In this document: one piece after another, positions 5,687-10,975 of the stretch | How the letters are laid out: each line of letters starts with the position of its first letter | Position numbering within the stretch: position 1 is the stretch's first letter | IMG/VR virus record: IMGVR_UViG_2713896903_000002 | Reading direction: 5' to 3' (one strand) | Source of the DNA: a virus | Lineage: Duplodnaviria; Heunggongvirae; Uroviricota; Caudoviricetes | Length of the DNA stretch: 22,910 bases | Notes under the pieces: generated by a model | The model's database searches: none | The model's input: the letters and a program-made list of their open reading frames with translations, nothing else | What the model was told of the DNA's origin: nothing | Made by a program: the position numbers and the translations under genes

Positions 5687-6466
5687 ATGAGCGAGAAATT
5701 GAAGATCGTCTATCGCCCGTTACAAGAACTGTCTCCGTATGCACACAATGCCAGGACACACAGCCCTGAGCAGGTAACGCAACTGGTAGAAAGCATTAAG
5801 CAATTTGGCTGGACTAATCCGGTGCTGATTGATGAAAAGGGCGAAGTTATTGCGGGTCACGGTCGCGTTATGGCGGCTGAAGTGCTCAAAATGGATTTCG
5901 TTCCGGTCATCGTTCTGTCTGGTCTGACGGATGATCAGAAAAAGGCGTACCGTCTGGCAGATAATCGCCTGCCGATGAATGCTGGCTGGGATGAAGATCT
6001 GTTACGGATGGAGCTGTCGGACCTAATTAATGCTGATTTTGATGTCTCCCTGACAGGCTTCAGCCCGATAGAAATTGATGAACTGTTGACGGATATTTTG
6101 CCTGGTACAGGAAATGAGGAGGAGCCGTATACGACGAAAATTGATACGCCTGTTTATGAGCCGTCAGGCGATAAACCGGATATCTGTGAACTGTACGACG
6201 ATACGAAAACTCAGGAGCTGATCAGCCGGATACGTTCGGCGTCCCTTAATCCTGATATTGAGAAATTCCTCCTGTGCGCGGCAGAACGTCACACGGTGTT
6301 TAATTTCAGCAGAATCGCGGACTATTACGCTCACGCCCCCGCTGAAATTCAGAGCCTTTTTGAGGAATCGGCTCTGGTGATCATTGATTATCAGCAGGCA
6401 ATTGAAAATGGGTTTGTCAGGATGACGCAGCGCATGGTGGAGATCATGCATGGCGAGGAGGAGTAA
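5687..6466 (+). CDS. ParB N-terminal-domain (ParB/sulfiredoxin-like nuclease domain) protein
   Basis: N-terminal LSPYAHNARTHSPEQV..L..SI..FGWTNPVLID..GEVIAGHGRVMAA pattern typical of ParB-N/ParBc domains; translationally coupled to the next gene. Confidence 0.65.
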   Translation: MSEKLKIVYRPLQELSPYAHNARTHSPEQVTQLVESIKQFGWTNPVLIDEKGEVIAGHGRVMAAEVLKMDFVPVIVLSGLTDDQKKAYRLADNRLPMNAGWDEDLLRMELSDLINADFDVSLTGFSPIEIDELLTDILPGTGNEEEPYTTKIDTPVYEPSGDKPDICELYDDTKTQELISRIRSASLNPDIEKFLLCAAERHTVFNFSRIADYYAHAPAEIQSLFEESALVIIDYQQAIENGFVRMTQRMVEIMHGEEE

Positions 6467-6467
6467 T

Positions 6468-7400
6468 ATGCGTGATGATTTTTGCGCCTTTATTCTGACT
6501 CACGGGCGACCGGACAAAGTTCTGACTTACCGGACGTTGCGTCGTGCTGGCTATACCGGGAAAATTTTTATCGTTGTTGATGATGAAGATAAAACCCGGC
6601 ATCAGTACGTAGCAGAATTTGGTGAACAGGTGCTGGTGTTTTCCAAAGCCGATATCGCCAGTCGTTTTGACGAAGCCGACAACTTTGGCGATCGACGTTC
6701 AATCTTTTATGCCAGGAATGCCTGTTTGGGCCTGGCAAAAAAGGTTGGGTGTAAATACTACATCCAGCTTGATGACGACTATCACGAGTTTCAGTTTCGG
6801 GTGGATCGCAACTATGACCAGGCTTATTTTCCGATAAGGAAACTGGACTCGATCCTTTCTGAAATGCTGGCGTATTACGAATCAATTCCTGCGCTTTCCA
6901 TCGCTATGGCGCAGGGGGGGGATTTTCTTGGTGATAATGGTGGTCATGCTGCATGGGTGAAACGCAAAGCAATGAACAGCTTTATTTGTTCTGTTGACCG
7001 ACCATTCTCATTTATGGGGCGTATTAACGAGGATGTGAATACATACACGAATCTCGGTCGTCGTGGTGAATTGTTTTTGACGATTGGCGCTGTCCAGTTA
7101 GGGCAGAAGCAAACGCAGAAAAACAGCGGCGGAATGACCGAACTGTATCTGGATTCCGGCACCTACGTTAAAAGTTTTTACTCCGTCATGTATGCGCCGT
7201 CGTGCGTAAAAATCTCACTGATGGGCGCCAGCCATAAACGCATTCACCATCAGGTCACCTGGAACAACGCTGCAGTAAAAATCCTTCACGAAAAATACAG
7301 GAAGAAGACACCCTGCATATCAATGGGGGTGATAAATGATTCCGTATTCGAAAGTCGAGTCTCTGGCAGCGTGCCGGATGACTGCACAACAAATCGCTGA
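6468..7400 (+). CDS. hypothetical protein with DxD-type acidic motifs (possible GT-A-like nucleotide-sugar transferase fold); function unverified
   Basis: GAGGAGGAG RBS before ATG 6468; motifs IFIVVDDEDKT and YIQLDDDYHEF; no methyltransferase or PAPS-reductase motifs seen. Confidence 0.5.
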   Translation: MRDDFCAFILTHGRPDKVLTYRTLRRAGYTGKIFIVVDDEDKTRHQYVAEFGEQVLVFSKADIASRFDEADNFGDRRSIFYARNACLGLAKKVGCKYYIQLDDDYHEFQFRVDRNYDQAYFPIRKLDSILSEMLAYYESIPALSIAMAQGGDFLGDNGGHAAWVKRKAMNSFICSVDRPFSFMGRINEDVNTYTNLGRRGELFLTIGAVQLGQKQTQKNSGGMTELYLDSGTYVKSFYSVMYAPSCVKISLMGASHKRIHHQVTWNNAAVKILHEKYRKKTPCISMGVINDSVFESRVSGSVPDDCTTNR

Positions 7401-7587
7401 CGTTCTGGATGTTGATCTGAACAGACTGAAAGAAAATCGGGAAGCAATGACAAATTTTTATGCGTCCATCCGTAAGGGCAGAGCGAAAGGTGAAGCCGAG
7501 CTACGGGCGGCATTGTTTAAGCTTGCCAGAAAAGGGGATGCCTTTGCTCTGCGTGCATTACTCAGGGTGGATAAAAATCAGGACTAA
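7336..7587 (+). CDS. small helix-turn-helix-like protein (83 aa), overlaps the 3' end of the upstream gene
   Basis: GGGGGTGA RBS before ATG 7336; TAQQIADVLDVDLNRL HTH-like segment; 65-nt overlap with upstream ORF makes the start uncertain (alternative ATG 7378). Confidence 0.4.
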   Translation: MIPYSKVESLAACRMTAQQIADVLDVDLNRLKENREAMTNFYASIRKGRAKGEAELRAALFKLARKGDAFALRALLRVDKNQD

Positions 7588-7590
7588 CTG

Positions 7591-8685
7591 ATGAGCAGAC
7601 CGGACTGGGGGGCGTTGCAGCAGGAATATATTGCTGAATACACCCGCTCCGGTGTATCTCCGGTGGCGTGGTGTGAAGCAAAGGGACTGAATTACGCAAC
7701 AGCCCGTCGTTACATCAAGAAACCTCCGAAAAATGCGCAGACAGAAGTGCGCAAAACTGCGCAAAAAAGTGCGCGAAAAAAAACTGCGCAGACTGCGCAA
7801 AAGCAAAACGGAAAATCTCAGAAAAAAAAGACTGTATCCGATGCACTCCTGATTGAGGAGGACACGGAAGAAATTTCGTTCTGCCCCGATGAATTCGGTA
7901 TTTCTGACCAGCAGGCAAAATTCGCCATGTTGGTTGCTCAGGGGAAAAAGCCGACAGAGGCATACCGCCTGGCTGGTTACGAGGGGCAAGGTGCGACAGC
8001 AAACAGCAATGCCAGTCGTATGCTTAGAAATGCCAGGGTTTTTCGTGCCATCAGCTACTTTCGCAATCATTACCAGAAACGCTATACCGCAGACCTGGAT
8101 TTACTGGTGAGTCAGTTGATGGCCATCGTGCAGGCTGATCCCAATCAGCTTGCGCAATTTCGCCGTGTTAACTGTCGCTATTGCTGGGGGGAGAATCACC
8201 TCTATCAGTGGCGCGATATAGCAGAATTTGACAGGGCTGCCGCGCAGGCATCCAAAGATGGTAAACCAGAACCTGAATATGGTGGCCTCGGTTTCGTTGA
8301 TAGCGCCATACCAAATCCAGACTGTCCGAAATGCGGTGGAGAAGGTACAGGTCAGCTTTATATGGCTGATACCACTTTGCTTGATGGAAATGCGCGGCAA
8401 TTGTATGCAGGAGCAAAGCTCGGAAAATTCGGCGTTGAGATCCTGCTGGAGAATAAAGCTGCCGCCCGGCGTGAATTATTGCGTTTGCTTTCCGCTGGCG
8501 GGGCATTATGTGCAGATAAGCGACTACAGGAACTGGAAATTGAACGGCGCAGAATGGAAAACCAGAAACTGCGCAAAGAGATCGAAACGGTGGAGGGTAA
8601 TGAACATCCCCAGCCTGTGGCGATCAATATTAATGTGGTTGATGCCAGAGTGAGGAGTGATGAAGATGATCTCTCCGACGCTTAA
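7591..8685 (+). CDS. terminase small subunit (Terminase_2-type core with N-terminal HTH, K/A/Q-rich linker and C-terminal Cys4 zinc-ribbon-like segment)
   Basis: KFAMLVAQGKKPTEAYRLAGYEG...NASRMLRNARV matches the small-terminase signature as recalled; CxxC...CxxC (NCRYCWGEN / PDCPKCGGEG); sits directly upstream of TerL. Confidence 0.75.
   Translation: MSRPDWGALQQEYIAEYTRSGVSPVAWCEAKGLNYATARRYIKKPPKNAQTEVRKTAQKSARKKTAQTAQKQNGKSQKKKTVSDALLIEEDTEEISFCPDEFGISDQQAKFAMLVAQGKKPTEAYRLAGYEGQGATANSNASRMLRNARVFRAISYFRNHYQKRYTADLDLLVSQLMAIVQADPNQLAQFRRVNCRYCWGENHLYQWRDIAEFDRAAAQASKDGKPEPEYGGLGFVDSAIPNPDCPKCGGEGTGQLYMADTTLLDGNARQLYAGAKLGKFGVEILLENKAAARRELLRLLSAGGALCADKRLQELEIERRRMENQKLRKEIETVEGNEHPQPVAININVVDARVRSDEDDLSDA
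7734..7799. repeat. six copies of palindromic hexamer TGCGCA (one TGCGCG) spaced 9-15 nt apart inside terS; candidate pac / TerS-binding array
   Basis: Direct reading: TGCGCR at 7734, 7748, 7758, 7770, 7785, 7794, mostly followed by A-runs. Confidence 0.45.
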
Positions 8686-10975
8686 TGTGCCTCAGGCGCG
8701 ATTTCTTTCTATGCCTCATAAATTTAAAGCCTATGTTGCTGGTTTTGGTTGCCTGAGGGGAAGTACGCCTGTGGTTACAGAGAATGGGATTCTACCCATT
8801 CAGGAAATAACTCGACCAATGCGCGTTTTATCTTGGTCGGATGAGAATAATCGATTTGAGCTTTCGCTAAGTGGTGGTGCGTACCCAAAAGGTGTGGCGA
8901 ATCTATACCGAGTAGTGACGCAGCGAGGAGAATTTGTAGCAAGCGGACATCACCGCGTTTTTTGCGCTGACGGTAGCTATCGATCTGTGGATAGTCTGGA
9001 CGAATCGGTGAAGGTATTTGCATCTTCGCAAAACCTTCTTCTGACCAGTTTGGCCGCCGTCCCGAAATCGTTGCACGCAGGTGATCCACGTTTGAATCAA
9101 AAACTCGCAGATTACTTGGGGTGTTATGCAGATGAAGCCCGTCGATATGGTCAACAACTTCTGATGGCAGCAGATAACGCCCCAGCTTCTTTTCAGCGAT
9201 CAAACGATGTTCAAACATCATGCCTGTTCTGCGCATATATGGATGGTCAGCAGGCGCTGGAACAACGGCATATTCATCCAGATCAACAATTCGACCACCA
9301 CGAAAGCTGGGGTTCAACTCACCCTTTCTGGCGCCACGGGAGAGCCGGTTGGTGTTGTGAATTCGGAGAATATTTTGAACGTGCTTTTCTGTGCAACCAA
9401 CTTCCGCCGCGATCTCTGCCGACGTACAGTGACCATCAGCAAGAGCGAGGATTCTGTCCTTCGCACTTTCTCGAGGGGCAGGCTTCTGGCGTTGTTTCAG
9501 CGTTAACCCATAACGAGATATGCAACGATAAACATGACTACGGTCACAACCTGCCAGAGAAGCAACTTCTGAAACGGTACGTTCTGGATGTGCTAAATCA
9601 CAAATTAAATGGTCAAGAGGCGTCAAAACCAAACGCCTTAATCGAAACCTGCAACATATTGAGTGTAACACTGTTGCAGGAGGCCGAGCCATATTATGAC
9701 CTCCAGGTATTGGATAATAACTGCTACGTAACTGCTGATGGGACGATTCATCACAATAGCGGTAAAACATGGGTTGGGTGTGGTGGCATATGTAAGGGGA
9801 TTTGGGAGCATCCGGGTATCAATCAGGGATATTTCGCGCCTACATATCCACAAATTCGCGATATTTTTTATCCTACAGTTGAAGAAGTTGCTGCCGACTG
9901 GGGGCTAAATGTAAAAATTAACGAGGGAAATAAAGAAGTTCATTTTTATTACGGACGTCAGTATCGGGGAACCACTATCTGCAGATCGATGGAGAAGCCA
10001 CAAACGATCGTCGGTTTCAAAATTGGTAATGCGCTGGTGGATGAACTGGACATTTTGCCGAAGGAAAAAGCCAGAACAGCGTGGCGCAAGATAATTGCGC
10101 GTATGCGTTATAAGGTTGATGGACTTCGTAACGGTATTGACGTTACAACCACGCCGGAAGGATTCAAATTTGTCTACGAACAGTTTGTTAAAGCCGTACG
10201 TGAAAAAACAGAGCTGGCCTCACTGTATGGCCTGGTACAGGCATCTACTTTCGATAATGAAAAGAATTTGCCAGCAGATTACATTCCCTCGCTCCTTGAG
10301 TCATATCCTCCAGAGCTGATTAAAGCCTATCTTCGGGGACAGTTTACTAACCTGACAAGTGGTACTGTTTACCATCAGTTTGACCGAAAACTGAATAATT
10401 GCGAAGAAGAGGAACAGCCAGGTGAGCCGATATATATCGGGATGGATTTTAACGTCGGAAAAATGGCTGGAGTCGTTCATGTGTTACGTTTTGGGCTTCC
10501 ATGCGCAGTAACTGAAATCATTAACGCTTACGATACACCAGATATGATCCGTATTATTAAAGAGCGCTTCTGGTTATATGACGGGAATGATTATCGGAAA
10601 GTAAGGGAAATTTATATTTATCCTGATGCATCCGGGGATTCCAGAAAATCAAATAACGCAAGTGCGACGGATATTGCTCAGCTTAAACAGGCTGGTTTTA
10701 ACGTTGTTGTAAACAGTTCGAACCCGCCAGTAAAAGATCGCGTTAACTCAATGAATGCAATGTTCTGCAATGCCAATGGTGAGCGTCGCTATAAAGTTAA
10801 TGTGAAGCGTTGTCCGGTATATGCCGAATCTCTGGAGCAACAGGTCTGGGATGATAAGGGTGAGCCTGATAAAAAATCTGGTAACGATCACCCGAATGAT
10901 GCCGGAGGTTATTTTATTGTTAAGCAATTCCCTATTGTCAAACCGACCGGAAGAGTTACATCACTTCGGATTTAA
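8657..10975 (+). CDS. terminase large subunit, intein-containing precursor (probable start ATG 8666; spliced product about 433 aa)
   Basis: Walker A split as ...YVAGFG | intein | SGKTW...; Walker B-like ALVDELD; nuclease-domain motifs IYIGMDFN and DHPNDAGGY; continuous 772-codon frame. Confidence 0.85.
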   Translation: MMKMISPTLNVPQARFLSMPHKFKAYVAGFGCLRGSTPVVTENGILPIQEITRPMRVLSWSDENNRFELSLSGGAYPKGVANLYRVVTQRGEFVASGHHRVFCADGSYRSVDSLDESVKVFASSQNLLLTSLAAVPKSLHAGDPRLNQKLADYLGCYADEARRYGQQLLMAADNAPASFQRSNDVQTSCLFCAYMDGQQALEQRHIHPDQQFDHHESWGSTHPFWRHGRAGWCCEFGEYFERAFLCNQLPPRSLPTYSDHQQERGFCPSHFLEGQASGVVSALTHNEICNDKHDYGHNLPEKQLLKRYVLDVLNHKLNGQEASKPNALIETCNILSVTLLQEAEPYYDLQVLDNNCYVTADGTIHHNSGKTWVGCGGICKGIWEHPGINQGYFAPTYPQIRDIFYPTVEEVAADWGLNVKINEGNKEVHFYYGRQYRGTTICRSMEKPQTIVGFKIGNALVDELDILPKEKARTAWRKIIARMRYKVDGLRNGIDVTTTPEGFKFVYEQFVKAVREKTELASLYGLVQASTFDNEKNLPADYIPSLLESYPPELIKAYLRGQFTNLTSGTVYHQFDRKLNNCEEEEQPGEPIYIGMDFNVGKMAGVVHVLRFGLPCAVTEIINAYDTPDMIRIIKERFWLYDGNDYRKVREIYIYPDASGDSRKSNNASATDIAQLKQAGFNVVVNSSNPPVKDRVNSMNAMFCNANGERRYKVNVKRCPVYAESLEQQVWDDKGEPDKKSGNDHPNDAGGYFIVKQFPIVKPTGRVTSLRI
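8750..9757 (+). other. intein (336 codons) inserted in the TerL P-loop
   Basis: Block A CLRGSTPVVTENG starting with Cys at 8750; block B-like GEFVASGHHRVF; blocks F/G EPYYDLQVLDNNCYVTADGTIHHN ending in HN followed by Ser +1 (9758); extein halves rejoin to AGFGSGKT. Confidence 0.8.
8775..9692 (-). CDS. HNH endonuclease with N-terminal HTH-like modules, encoded antisense within the intein
   Basis: Minus-strand ORF shows HNH core FEHRLIAEKKLGRYLLPSEVVDHIDGLHLHNTPSNLRVFDSNVDHL (antisense of about 9075-9215); GGAGG + 7-nt spacer before ATG at 9690-9692; ORF is open from 9770 to 8775, so the true ends are uncertain. Confidence 0.55.
   Translation of the reverse strand: MARPPATVLHSICCRFRLRRLVLTPLDHLICDLAHPERTVSEVASLAGCDRSHVYRCISRYGLTLKQRQKPAPRESAKDRILALADGHCTSAEIAAEVGCTEKHVQNILRIHNTNRLSRGARKGELNPSFRGGRIVDLDEYAVVPAPADHPYMRRTGMMFEHRLIAEKKLGRYLLPSEVVDHIDGLHLHNTPSNLRVFDSNVDHLRATISGRRPNWSEEGFAKMQIPSPIRPDYPQIDSYRQRKKRGDVRLLQILLAASLLGIDSPHLLGTHHHLAKAQIDYSHPTKIKRALVELFPEWVESHSL

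Follow-up and report, generated by a model that had tools for sequence, protein, structure and literature searches.

The small terminase gene (terS) of the virus record IMGVR_UViG_2713896903_000002 raises the question why one short hexamer, TGCGCR, should be written six times within 66 nt of a protein-coding sequence. The stretch of DNA analysed, 22,910 nt long and called the window in the following, is the late region of a Rac-like lambdoid prophage, and the hexamers lie at positions 7734–7799. An initial annotation made from the letters alone had proposed at this place a candidate pac site, composed of repeated motifs to which the small terminase (TerS) binds inside its own gene, and with it headful instead of cos packaging; the comparative evidence assembled here supports that proposal. 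With a probability of about 0.7, these six copies form the recognition part of a pac site of the kind known from phage P1, at which headful packaging of the prophage would start. We favour this reading because the array bears the marks of selection at the DNA level, is tied to the N-terminal domain of TerS, has a relative in the proven pac of P1 and is accompanied by a large terminase (TerL) with headful relatives.

Exact matches to TGCGCR start at 7734, 7748, 7758, 7770, 7785 and 7794, just as first described; five read TGCGCA and the one at 7770 reads TGCGCG. The start-to-start spacings are 14, 10, 12, 15 and 9 nt, with a mean of 12, so that the wording 'roughly one helical turn apart' holds as an approximation only, and the A-tract said to follow each hexamer is present after four of the six, while the other two are followed by GAC. 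That the DNA encodes a Lys/Ala/Gln-rich linker inside the small terminase gene is correct: the hexamers span the codons for residues 48–71 of TerS (...NAQTEVRKTAQKSARKKTAQTAQK), the array-encoded peptide KTAQKSARKKTAQTAQK corresponding to residues 55–71 of the 364-residue product. TGCGCR is not clearly enriched in the window as a whole: against an expectation of 34.9, both strands together contain 47 copies, a count also attained in 4 of 100 shuffles. The local accumulation of six copies in 66 nt, against largest clusters of one to three in 300 first-order Markov simulations, is far beyond chance, and it is unique, since no second cluster occurs in the window even with one mismatch allowed.

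Repeats within a coding sequence may reflect the peptide as well as the DNA. When the linker peptide was kept fixed and its codons were redrawn 100,000 times according to codon usage in the window, the draws contained 0.46 hexamers on average and five at most, and the observed six were never reached (P < 1e-5). Ala-Gln is spelled TGCGCA at all four places in the array, compared with 2 of 26 elsewhere in the open reading frames (ORFs) of the window. Five of the hexamers are read as xxT GCG CRx (x-Ala-Gln/Arg), and the one at 7748 is read in another frame as GTG CGC AAA (Val-Arg-Lys). Relatives, that is TerS genes sharing the N-terminal domain, were collected from annotated phages and from IMG/VR and comprise 185 distinct domain-plus-linker sequences, in which 78% of the hexamers encode x-Ala-Gln, 17% Val/Leu/Met-Arg-x and 5% Cys-Ala, with all three frames in use; the variant TGCGAA of Pasteurella phage Pmp11 encodes Cys-Glu instead of Ala-Asn. 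Codon choice, too, differs between the linker and the rest of terS. In relatives with arginine at TerS residue 39 (R-type), Ala-Gln/His is spelled TGCGCA at 538 of 576 places in the linker (93%) versus 131 of 408 in the rest of terS (32%), and in those with lysine at this residue (K-type), Ala-Asn/Lys is spelled TGCGAA at 164 of 191 linker places (86%) versus 44 of 260 (17%). As codon resampling fails to produce the array, one copy stands in another frame and relatives use all three frames, the sequences indicate that the array is selected as DNA and is not a by-product of the Lys/Ala/Gln peptide.

The protein encoded around the array offers a candidate for its recognition. The assignment of TerS to the Terminase_2 type rather than to lambda Nu1 is borne out by a PF03592 match over residues 122–321 (31.5 bits, cut-off 26.1) and by the lack of any Nu1-type Pfam match in the window TerS. 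Not the Terminase_2 domain, which the initial annotation mentioned, but an additional N-terminal helix-turn-helix (HTH) domain of residues 1–43 is likely to read the repeats; together with the linker, this domain falls outside the Pfam match. An AlphaFold2 single-sequence model of these 43 residues, with a mean predicted local distance difference test (pLDDT) score of 85, consists of helices at residues 6–20, 24–31 and 35–41, residue 39 being part of the third. The alignment-based model of full TerS has a mean pLDDT of 49 and is usable only for the N-terminal domain, the linker, of which residues 47–94 stay below 50 and are predicted to be disordered, and the confident helical region 99–160 with which the Terminase_2 part opens. 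The array begins 15 nt past codon 43, in the 5′ half of the linker-coding DNA, and the disorder of the linker is probably the reason why a DNA signal can be written in this stretch.

Among the relatives, an array stands directly after the domain in 184 of the 185 sequences, hexamer density peaking 0–100 nt past the domain end in every group, with background on both sides and spacings mainly of 7–16 nt. Arg39, within the helix 3 motif ARRYIK, goes along with TGCGCA in 132 of 133 cases (mean 5.2 copies per 120 nt), and Lys39 (AKRYIK) with TGCGAA or its complement TTCGCA in 52 of 52 (mean 5.3 copies). Of all columns of the domain, only residue 39 fully predicts the array type. Clusters of C-terminal cores at ≥60% identity hold both array types, domains which differ at only two of 43 residues carry different arrays, and a neighbour-joining tree of the domain-coding DNA requires at least eight changes between arginine and lysine. 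The array type, then, follows the N-terminal domain and not the Terminase_2 core.

Relatives with other domain variants extend this relation. Shiga toxin (Stx) phages have helix 1 in common but fall into a GER2 class with ARRYIK and TGCGCA and a 933W class with ARTRIK and YGATCA. In phage 933W (L311, NC_000924; 1640–1682) and the Stx loci L392–L430, four copies of YGATCA (five in one variant) follow each other at exact 12-nt spacing and encode IDHEIDHKTDHEIDH, each copy containing a GATC site for Dam as in P1. The 933W terS therefore shares with that of the window the domain family, its helix 1 being identical to that of GER2, and the place of the array, and differs in helix 3, in the hexamer and in its Dam sites; this N-terminus is common to about 220 Stx-phage records, and no paper on the 933W-type array was found. 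Actinobacillus phage pPE4 (L005) has the same core (65% identity) combined with an unrelated, HTH_50-like HTH, directly after which six TGGAAA/TTTCCA hexamers stand at 2334–2400, which suggests that the layout of a reader domain followed by its own sites is more general. Loss of the domain has also been encountered. In Rac-SA53 (L002, 2500–2570), a deletion that removed the N-terminal domain fused terS to an upstream gene; hexamers 2 and 3 are intact, and hexamers 4, 5 and 6 have become TTCGCA, TGCGCT and TGCCCA, so that three of the five surviving copies are mutated, which is consistent with decay after loss of the reader. In Klebsiella-type relatives, the main array is followed some 220 nt further on by another three TGCGCA, located in the DNA for the HTH of Terminase_2 (peptide SVAQAIAQQQKA).

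The initial annotation had set the array beside P22, SPP1 and Sf6, headful phages with the pac signal in or next to the small terminase gene (PMC13595956). The right comparator is phage P1, with its pac hexamers inside pacA. The pac of P22 is one asymmetric site some 22 bp long, that of SPP1 is composed of pacL, pacC and pacR with bent DNA, and to our knowledge neither is an array of a single hexamer directly after the coding region of a reader domain. P1 pac is a 161-bp segment inside pacA, in which seven TGATCA/G hexamers, four in one group and three in the other, are accompanied by a site for IHF and a central cut (PMC10028697); it is recognised by PacA/PacB (Sternberg and Coulby, 1987; Skorupski et al., 1994; as cited in PMC10028697), and synonymous recoding of its hexamers lowers the titre about 9-fold (PMC10028697). 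According to the P1 record, these hexamers occupy gene offsets 193–232 and 323–351, in two frames and with spacings of 7, 12 and 15 nt and of 12 and 11 nt respectively, and the annotated cleavage sites fall between the two groups. What the window has in common with P1 is thus a short hexamer repeated inside the small terminase gene, in more than one reading frame, at irregular spacings of about 7–15 nt and downstream of a probably related N-terminal HTH-like domain, and in the Klebsiella-type relatives only also a two-part layout like the four plus three hexamers of P1.

A relationship of the two domains is suggested by the alignment of the PacA N-terminus (…LNPNTARRYLR…) with that of the window (…LNYATARRYIK…; BLASTP, 29% identity, E = 0.001). 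PacA constitutes phrog_1711 (E = 4e-202), to which window residues 6–82 match with E = 4.3e-5, and the reverse match of PacA to phrog_370 has E = 1.9e-4. A scan with the P1 PacA N-terminus retrieved only near-identical P1-like sequences. Taken together, these matches suggest that the N-terminal domain of the window is distantly related to that of PacA. Differences concern the hexamer itself, TGCGCA in the window and TGATCR in P1, the TerS core, which is Terminase_2 and not PacA-like, the TerL, which is of the Terminase_6 type, and the distance between domain and array, 15 nt in the window versus about 70 nt in P1. With TGCGCA in the place of TGATCR, there is no GATC for Dam and no basis for methylation control, so that P1-style regulation of the window array by methylation is ruled out; a DNA methyltransferase was not found either among the larger window ORFs scanned upstream of and around terS.

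A further system for comparison is cosB of lambda, whose sites R1–R3 are read by the winged HTH of gpNu1, likewise an oligomeric small terminase acting near the cut and gaining avidity from repeats. CosB, however, is located upstream of Nu1 and outside the coding sequence and serves unit-length cos packaging with IHF, while the repeats of the window lie inside the gene. A description of these arrays was not found in the freely accessible literature searched.

That the prophage packages by the headful mechanism is suggested by homology. Outside an intein, TerL is 44–45% identical to the TerL of Jerseyvirus (Jersey-like Salmonella phages), for which PhageTerm, restriction patterns and pulsed-field gel electrophoresis indicate headful packaging with pac initiation (PMC10783031). 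Pavtok and PEp14, relatives by the TerS core, are of the headful type by TerL phylogeny, and a Mu F-like head protein and a DUF4055 portal are encoded downstream of terL. The record of phage phi345, which ends inside terS, was also considered as a physical end and dismissed, as the record had simply been opened at the terL start codon.

A mechanism which would accommodate these observations starts from the ring-shaped oligomers that small terminases form (PMC13595956). In each TerS subunit, a flexible tether of about 50 residues would join the small HTH to the Terminase_2 oligomerisation core, and several of the tethered domains of one oligomer would bind to one 6-bp site each. With 26 TGCGCR start positions on the plus strand of the window alone, one 6-bp site cannot provide specificity; a single hexamer would be weak and common, and five or six within 66 bp would confer both avidity and uniqueness. 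Irregular spacing, and in K-type arrays mixed orientation of the sites, would be easier to reconcile with flexible tethers than with a rigid lattice. TerS bound to the array would then recruit TerL, which would cut nearby and start the headful series. As the linker, being disordered, may tolerate almost any amino acid, the DNA encoding it would be free to evolve as an array. TerS binding, the reading of the fifth base by residue 39, the TerL cut site and the packaging direction are elements of this scheme that we infer.

A number of observations weigh against the proposed pac function or the proposed reader. The matches that link the domain to PacA are weak, with E between 1e-3 and 4e-5, even if mutually consistent, and a Foldseek search of the PDB with the N-terminal domain model, taken as a hint only, places HTH DNA-binding domains at the top, none of them significant (E about 1). 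Unlike P1 pac, the array at 7734–7799 contains no GATC, the nearest being at 8137, the region 7500–8100 has no match to the IHF consensus WATCAR-N4-TTR, the hexamers form a single cluster of six instead of two clusters, and the TerL extein has no similarity to PacB (BLASTP, E = 0.77). Since Dam sites, IHF site, second cluster and a PacB-type subunit are all absent, the array would work like P1 pac without being a strict member of the P1 pac family. In 12 Rac-like genes, four-fold degenerate sites within hexamers are invariant at six of seven positions versus 57% elsewhere, which are too few sites for significance. One relative (L145, IMG/VR contig 3300025607_000090, 1201–1500) has the domain (…NYSTARRYIK) followed by a Lys/Val-rich linker and no array in 2.5 kb, and it is the only relative with the domain and without the array.

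Other points of this kind concern the covariation. Recognition helix and array are only 15–100 nt apart, a proximity by which physical linkage alone keeps both together. In the closest Lys/Arg pairs (L117/L115, L110/L115, L121/L113 and L149/L276), the first approximately 90 nt of terS, which encode helices 1 and 2, are 90–97% identical, whereas upstream DNA, helix 3, array and TerS core of these phages are otherwise unrelated. The segment has the character of a linker for recombination where two modules meet. With a recombination junction thus located just upstream of helix 3, the changes between arginine and lysine on the tree may be cassette swaps and not independent co-evolution. Moreover, codons 37–39 are themselves part of a hexamer in 26 of 52 K-type and 20 of 133 R-type genes, so that the Arg/Lys signal could partly be imposed by the DNA motif; the codons of the window at this place (GCC CGT) form no hexamer. 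Finally, PacA has ARRY and yet uses TGATCR sites, which means that residue 39 is not a complete code.

Among other functions for the array, a regulatory one comes closest to the pac site, in that binding of the TerS N-terminal domain would be retained and would serve the transcription or translation of terS-terL or the nucleation of TerS on its own gene. Co-occurrence and covariation fit any binding-dependent function, and the site is situated inside the terminase operon. Such a role is nevertheless unlikely, because P1, the only characterised relative of the layout, uses it as pac, a promoter scan of 7200–8300 found none, and TerS proteins are known as recognition factors for pac or cos (PMC13595956).

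Secondary structure of the nucleic acid, either as hairpins in mRNA or single-stranded DNA or as minus-strand terminators against antisense transcription, is an explanation we consider less likely still, though folding is readily predicted. RNA of positions 7715–7830 folds into three hairpins with z = −3.6, 99% of the R-type and 77% of the K-type arrays fold better than shuffles, and both hexamer orientations are present in 48 of 52 K-type arrays. Intrinsic-terminator-like sites number five in 7200–8300 against 1.4 expected; those of the array, on the minus strand at 7800–7784, 7763–7748 and 7753–7734, are hexamer pairs followed by T-runs, which resemble weak terminators and probably arise only because palindromes stand beside AAA codons for lysine. 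Copies of a palindromic hexamer pair with each other in any case, without selection, and in the four K-type arrays of one orientation (Pmp11 group) folding is weak or absent (z −2.0 to +2.1) and yet three to five hexamers are kept, for which reasons we regard the hairpins, too, as a by-product. In addition, mutations of single hexamers are not compensated in a partner (variants L034 and L039), the stems have only 6–7 bp, an Rfam search of 7300–8300 with E up to 1 gave no match, and the tracking of protein helix 3 by the motif would be left unexplained.

It is very improbable that the array serves another protein encoded nearby, for which a ParB-like protein (5687–6466) and a small TerS-like one (7336–7587) come into question. 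Both genes are located just upstream of terS, ParB-type proteins bind repeated sites, and the TerS-like ORF matches the TerS profile phrog_309 (E = 8e-22). Arrays are, however, equally present in Klebsiella, Yersinia, Providencia, Aeromonas, Pasteurella and Stx phages, which have lysis genes and not these two upstream, and their type tracks the TerS N-terminal domain. Least credible of all is a protein-level or slippage feature, in which a low-complexity Lys/Ala/Gln linker arose by tandem duplication with an incidental DNA motif, since the repetitive, TAQK-like peptide and the shifts of copy number by in-frame indels (four copies in L016, one 12-nt unit gained in L430) are outweighed by the codon resampling, by hexamers that in three frames encode unrelated dipeptides, by a linker predicted to be disordered and devoid of a conserved peptide, and by the retention of hexamers in the frameshifted pseudogene L060.

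Returning to the pac reading, its extension beyond this prophage would be a portable 'specificity cassette', composed of helix 3 of a PacA-like HTH and the cognate hexamers in the adjoining linker DNA, that is common to a large TerS family; we put this forward tentatively, at slightly less than even odds. Comparable reserve applies to the members such a family would have, which are P1, 933W-type Stx phages, Rac-like prophages and phages of Klebsiella, Yersinia, Providencia, Aeromonas and Pasteurella. If the generalisation is true, specificity can be read from the protein, ARRYIK standing for TGCGCA, AKRYIK for TGCGAA and ARTRIK for YGATCA, and a change of a single residue (Arg39/Lys39) and a single base (C5/A5) could suffice to switch it; for the Stx phages with GATC hexamers, packaging under the control of Dam, as in P1, would be implied. 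Pac sequences and cut positions are stated in a review to 'vary widely' (PMC13595956), and experimentally defined pac sites are available for a handful of phages only. If the pac reading holds, the packaging start of very common enterobacterial prophages, Shiga toxin phages included, would become readable from terS, DNA mobilised by generalised transduction or captured by satellites would become predictable, and packaging specificity could be re-engineered, as has already been done for P1 phagemids. The array would also illustrate clearly how a cis-acting DNA signal can be accommodated in coding sequence for a disordered linker.

Coordinates of the terminase region in the window and of the second hexamer group in Klebsiella-type relatives
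Feature	Position	Strand	Basis or remark
Hexamer array, six TGCGCR	7734..7799	.	Proposed TerS recognition part of the pac site
terS, small terminase, 364 residues: N-terminal HTH, linker, Terminase_2 core	7591..8685	+	PF03592; phrog_51, E = 2e-74
N-terminal three-helix (HTH-like) domain, residues 1–43; proposed hexamer reader	7591..7719	+	AlphaFold2, profile matches
Codon 39 (CGT, Arg), helix 3	7705..7707	+	Covariation with the fifth hexamer base throughout the family
Disordered linker, residues 47–94	7729..7872	+	pLDDT below 50
terL, large terminase (Terminase_6N/6C), with intein at nt 8750–9757	8657..10975	+	Presumed nuclease/motor that cuts near the site
Second hexamer group, Klebsiella-type relatives	L003/L004 2802–2845; L007 2288–2365		

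The genes of the window are arranged in the order Q-like antiterminator and lysis genes, ParB-like gene, TET-associated glycosyltransferase, small TerS-like ORF, terS, terL, DUF4055 portal and Mu F-like protein. Close relatives adjoin trkG, and the terS segment is present in 905 of 5426 complete Escherichia coli genomes (about 17%). The small TerS-like ORF on the plus strand just upstream of terS encodes 83 residues, which correspond to positions 145–215 of the 319 of phrog_309; kept in Rac-like relatives and absent from the Klebsiella, Yersinia and Stx relatives, it could represent a remnant or else bind DNA in an accessory role. Just upstream of the terminase genes, the plus strand encodes at 5687–7400 a ParB_N-domain protein and the TET-associated glycosyltransferase (PF20691, E = 3e-35; phrog_842), the latter named 'GREB1-related protein' by PGAP, and neither a TET dioxygenase nor a cytosine methyltransferase was found among the ORFs scanned.

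The intein by which terL is split has 336 residues and is inserted in the Walker A motif, with the junctions between …AGFG and CLRGST… and between …TIHHN and SGKT…. Both strands of this region are open for about 1 kb, and the minus strand carries inside the intein, at 8775–9770, an antisense ORF of 331 residues with HTH and HNH_3 domains (phrog_10730, E = 8e-48). An endonuclease gene antisense to the intein which it presumably mobilises is unusual. The same arrangement is found at the same site in Pectobacterium phage Ymer, in which TerL has 754 residues, the antisense HNH protein is 49% identical and the intein ends align with E = 3e-46. Relatives such as SPF_0923 are without the terL insertion, which among the 5426 complete E. 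coli genomes occurs in one, MEI003, with 99.5% identity.

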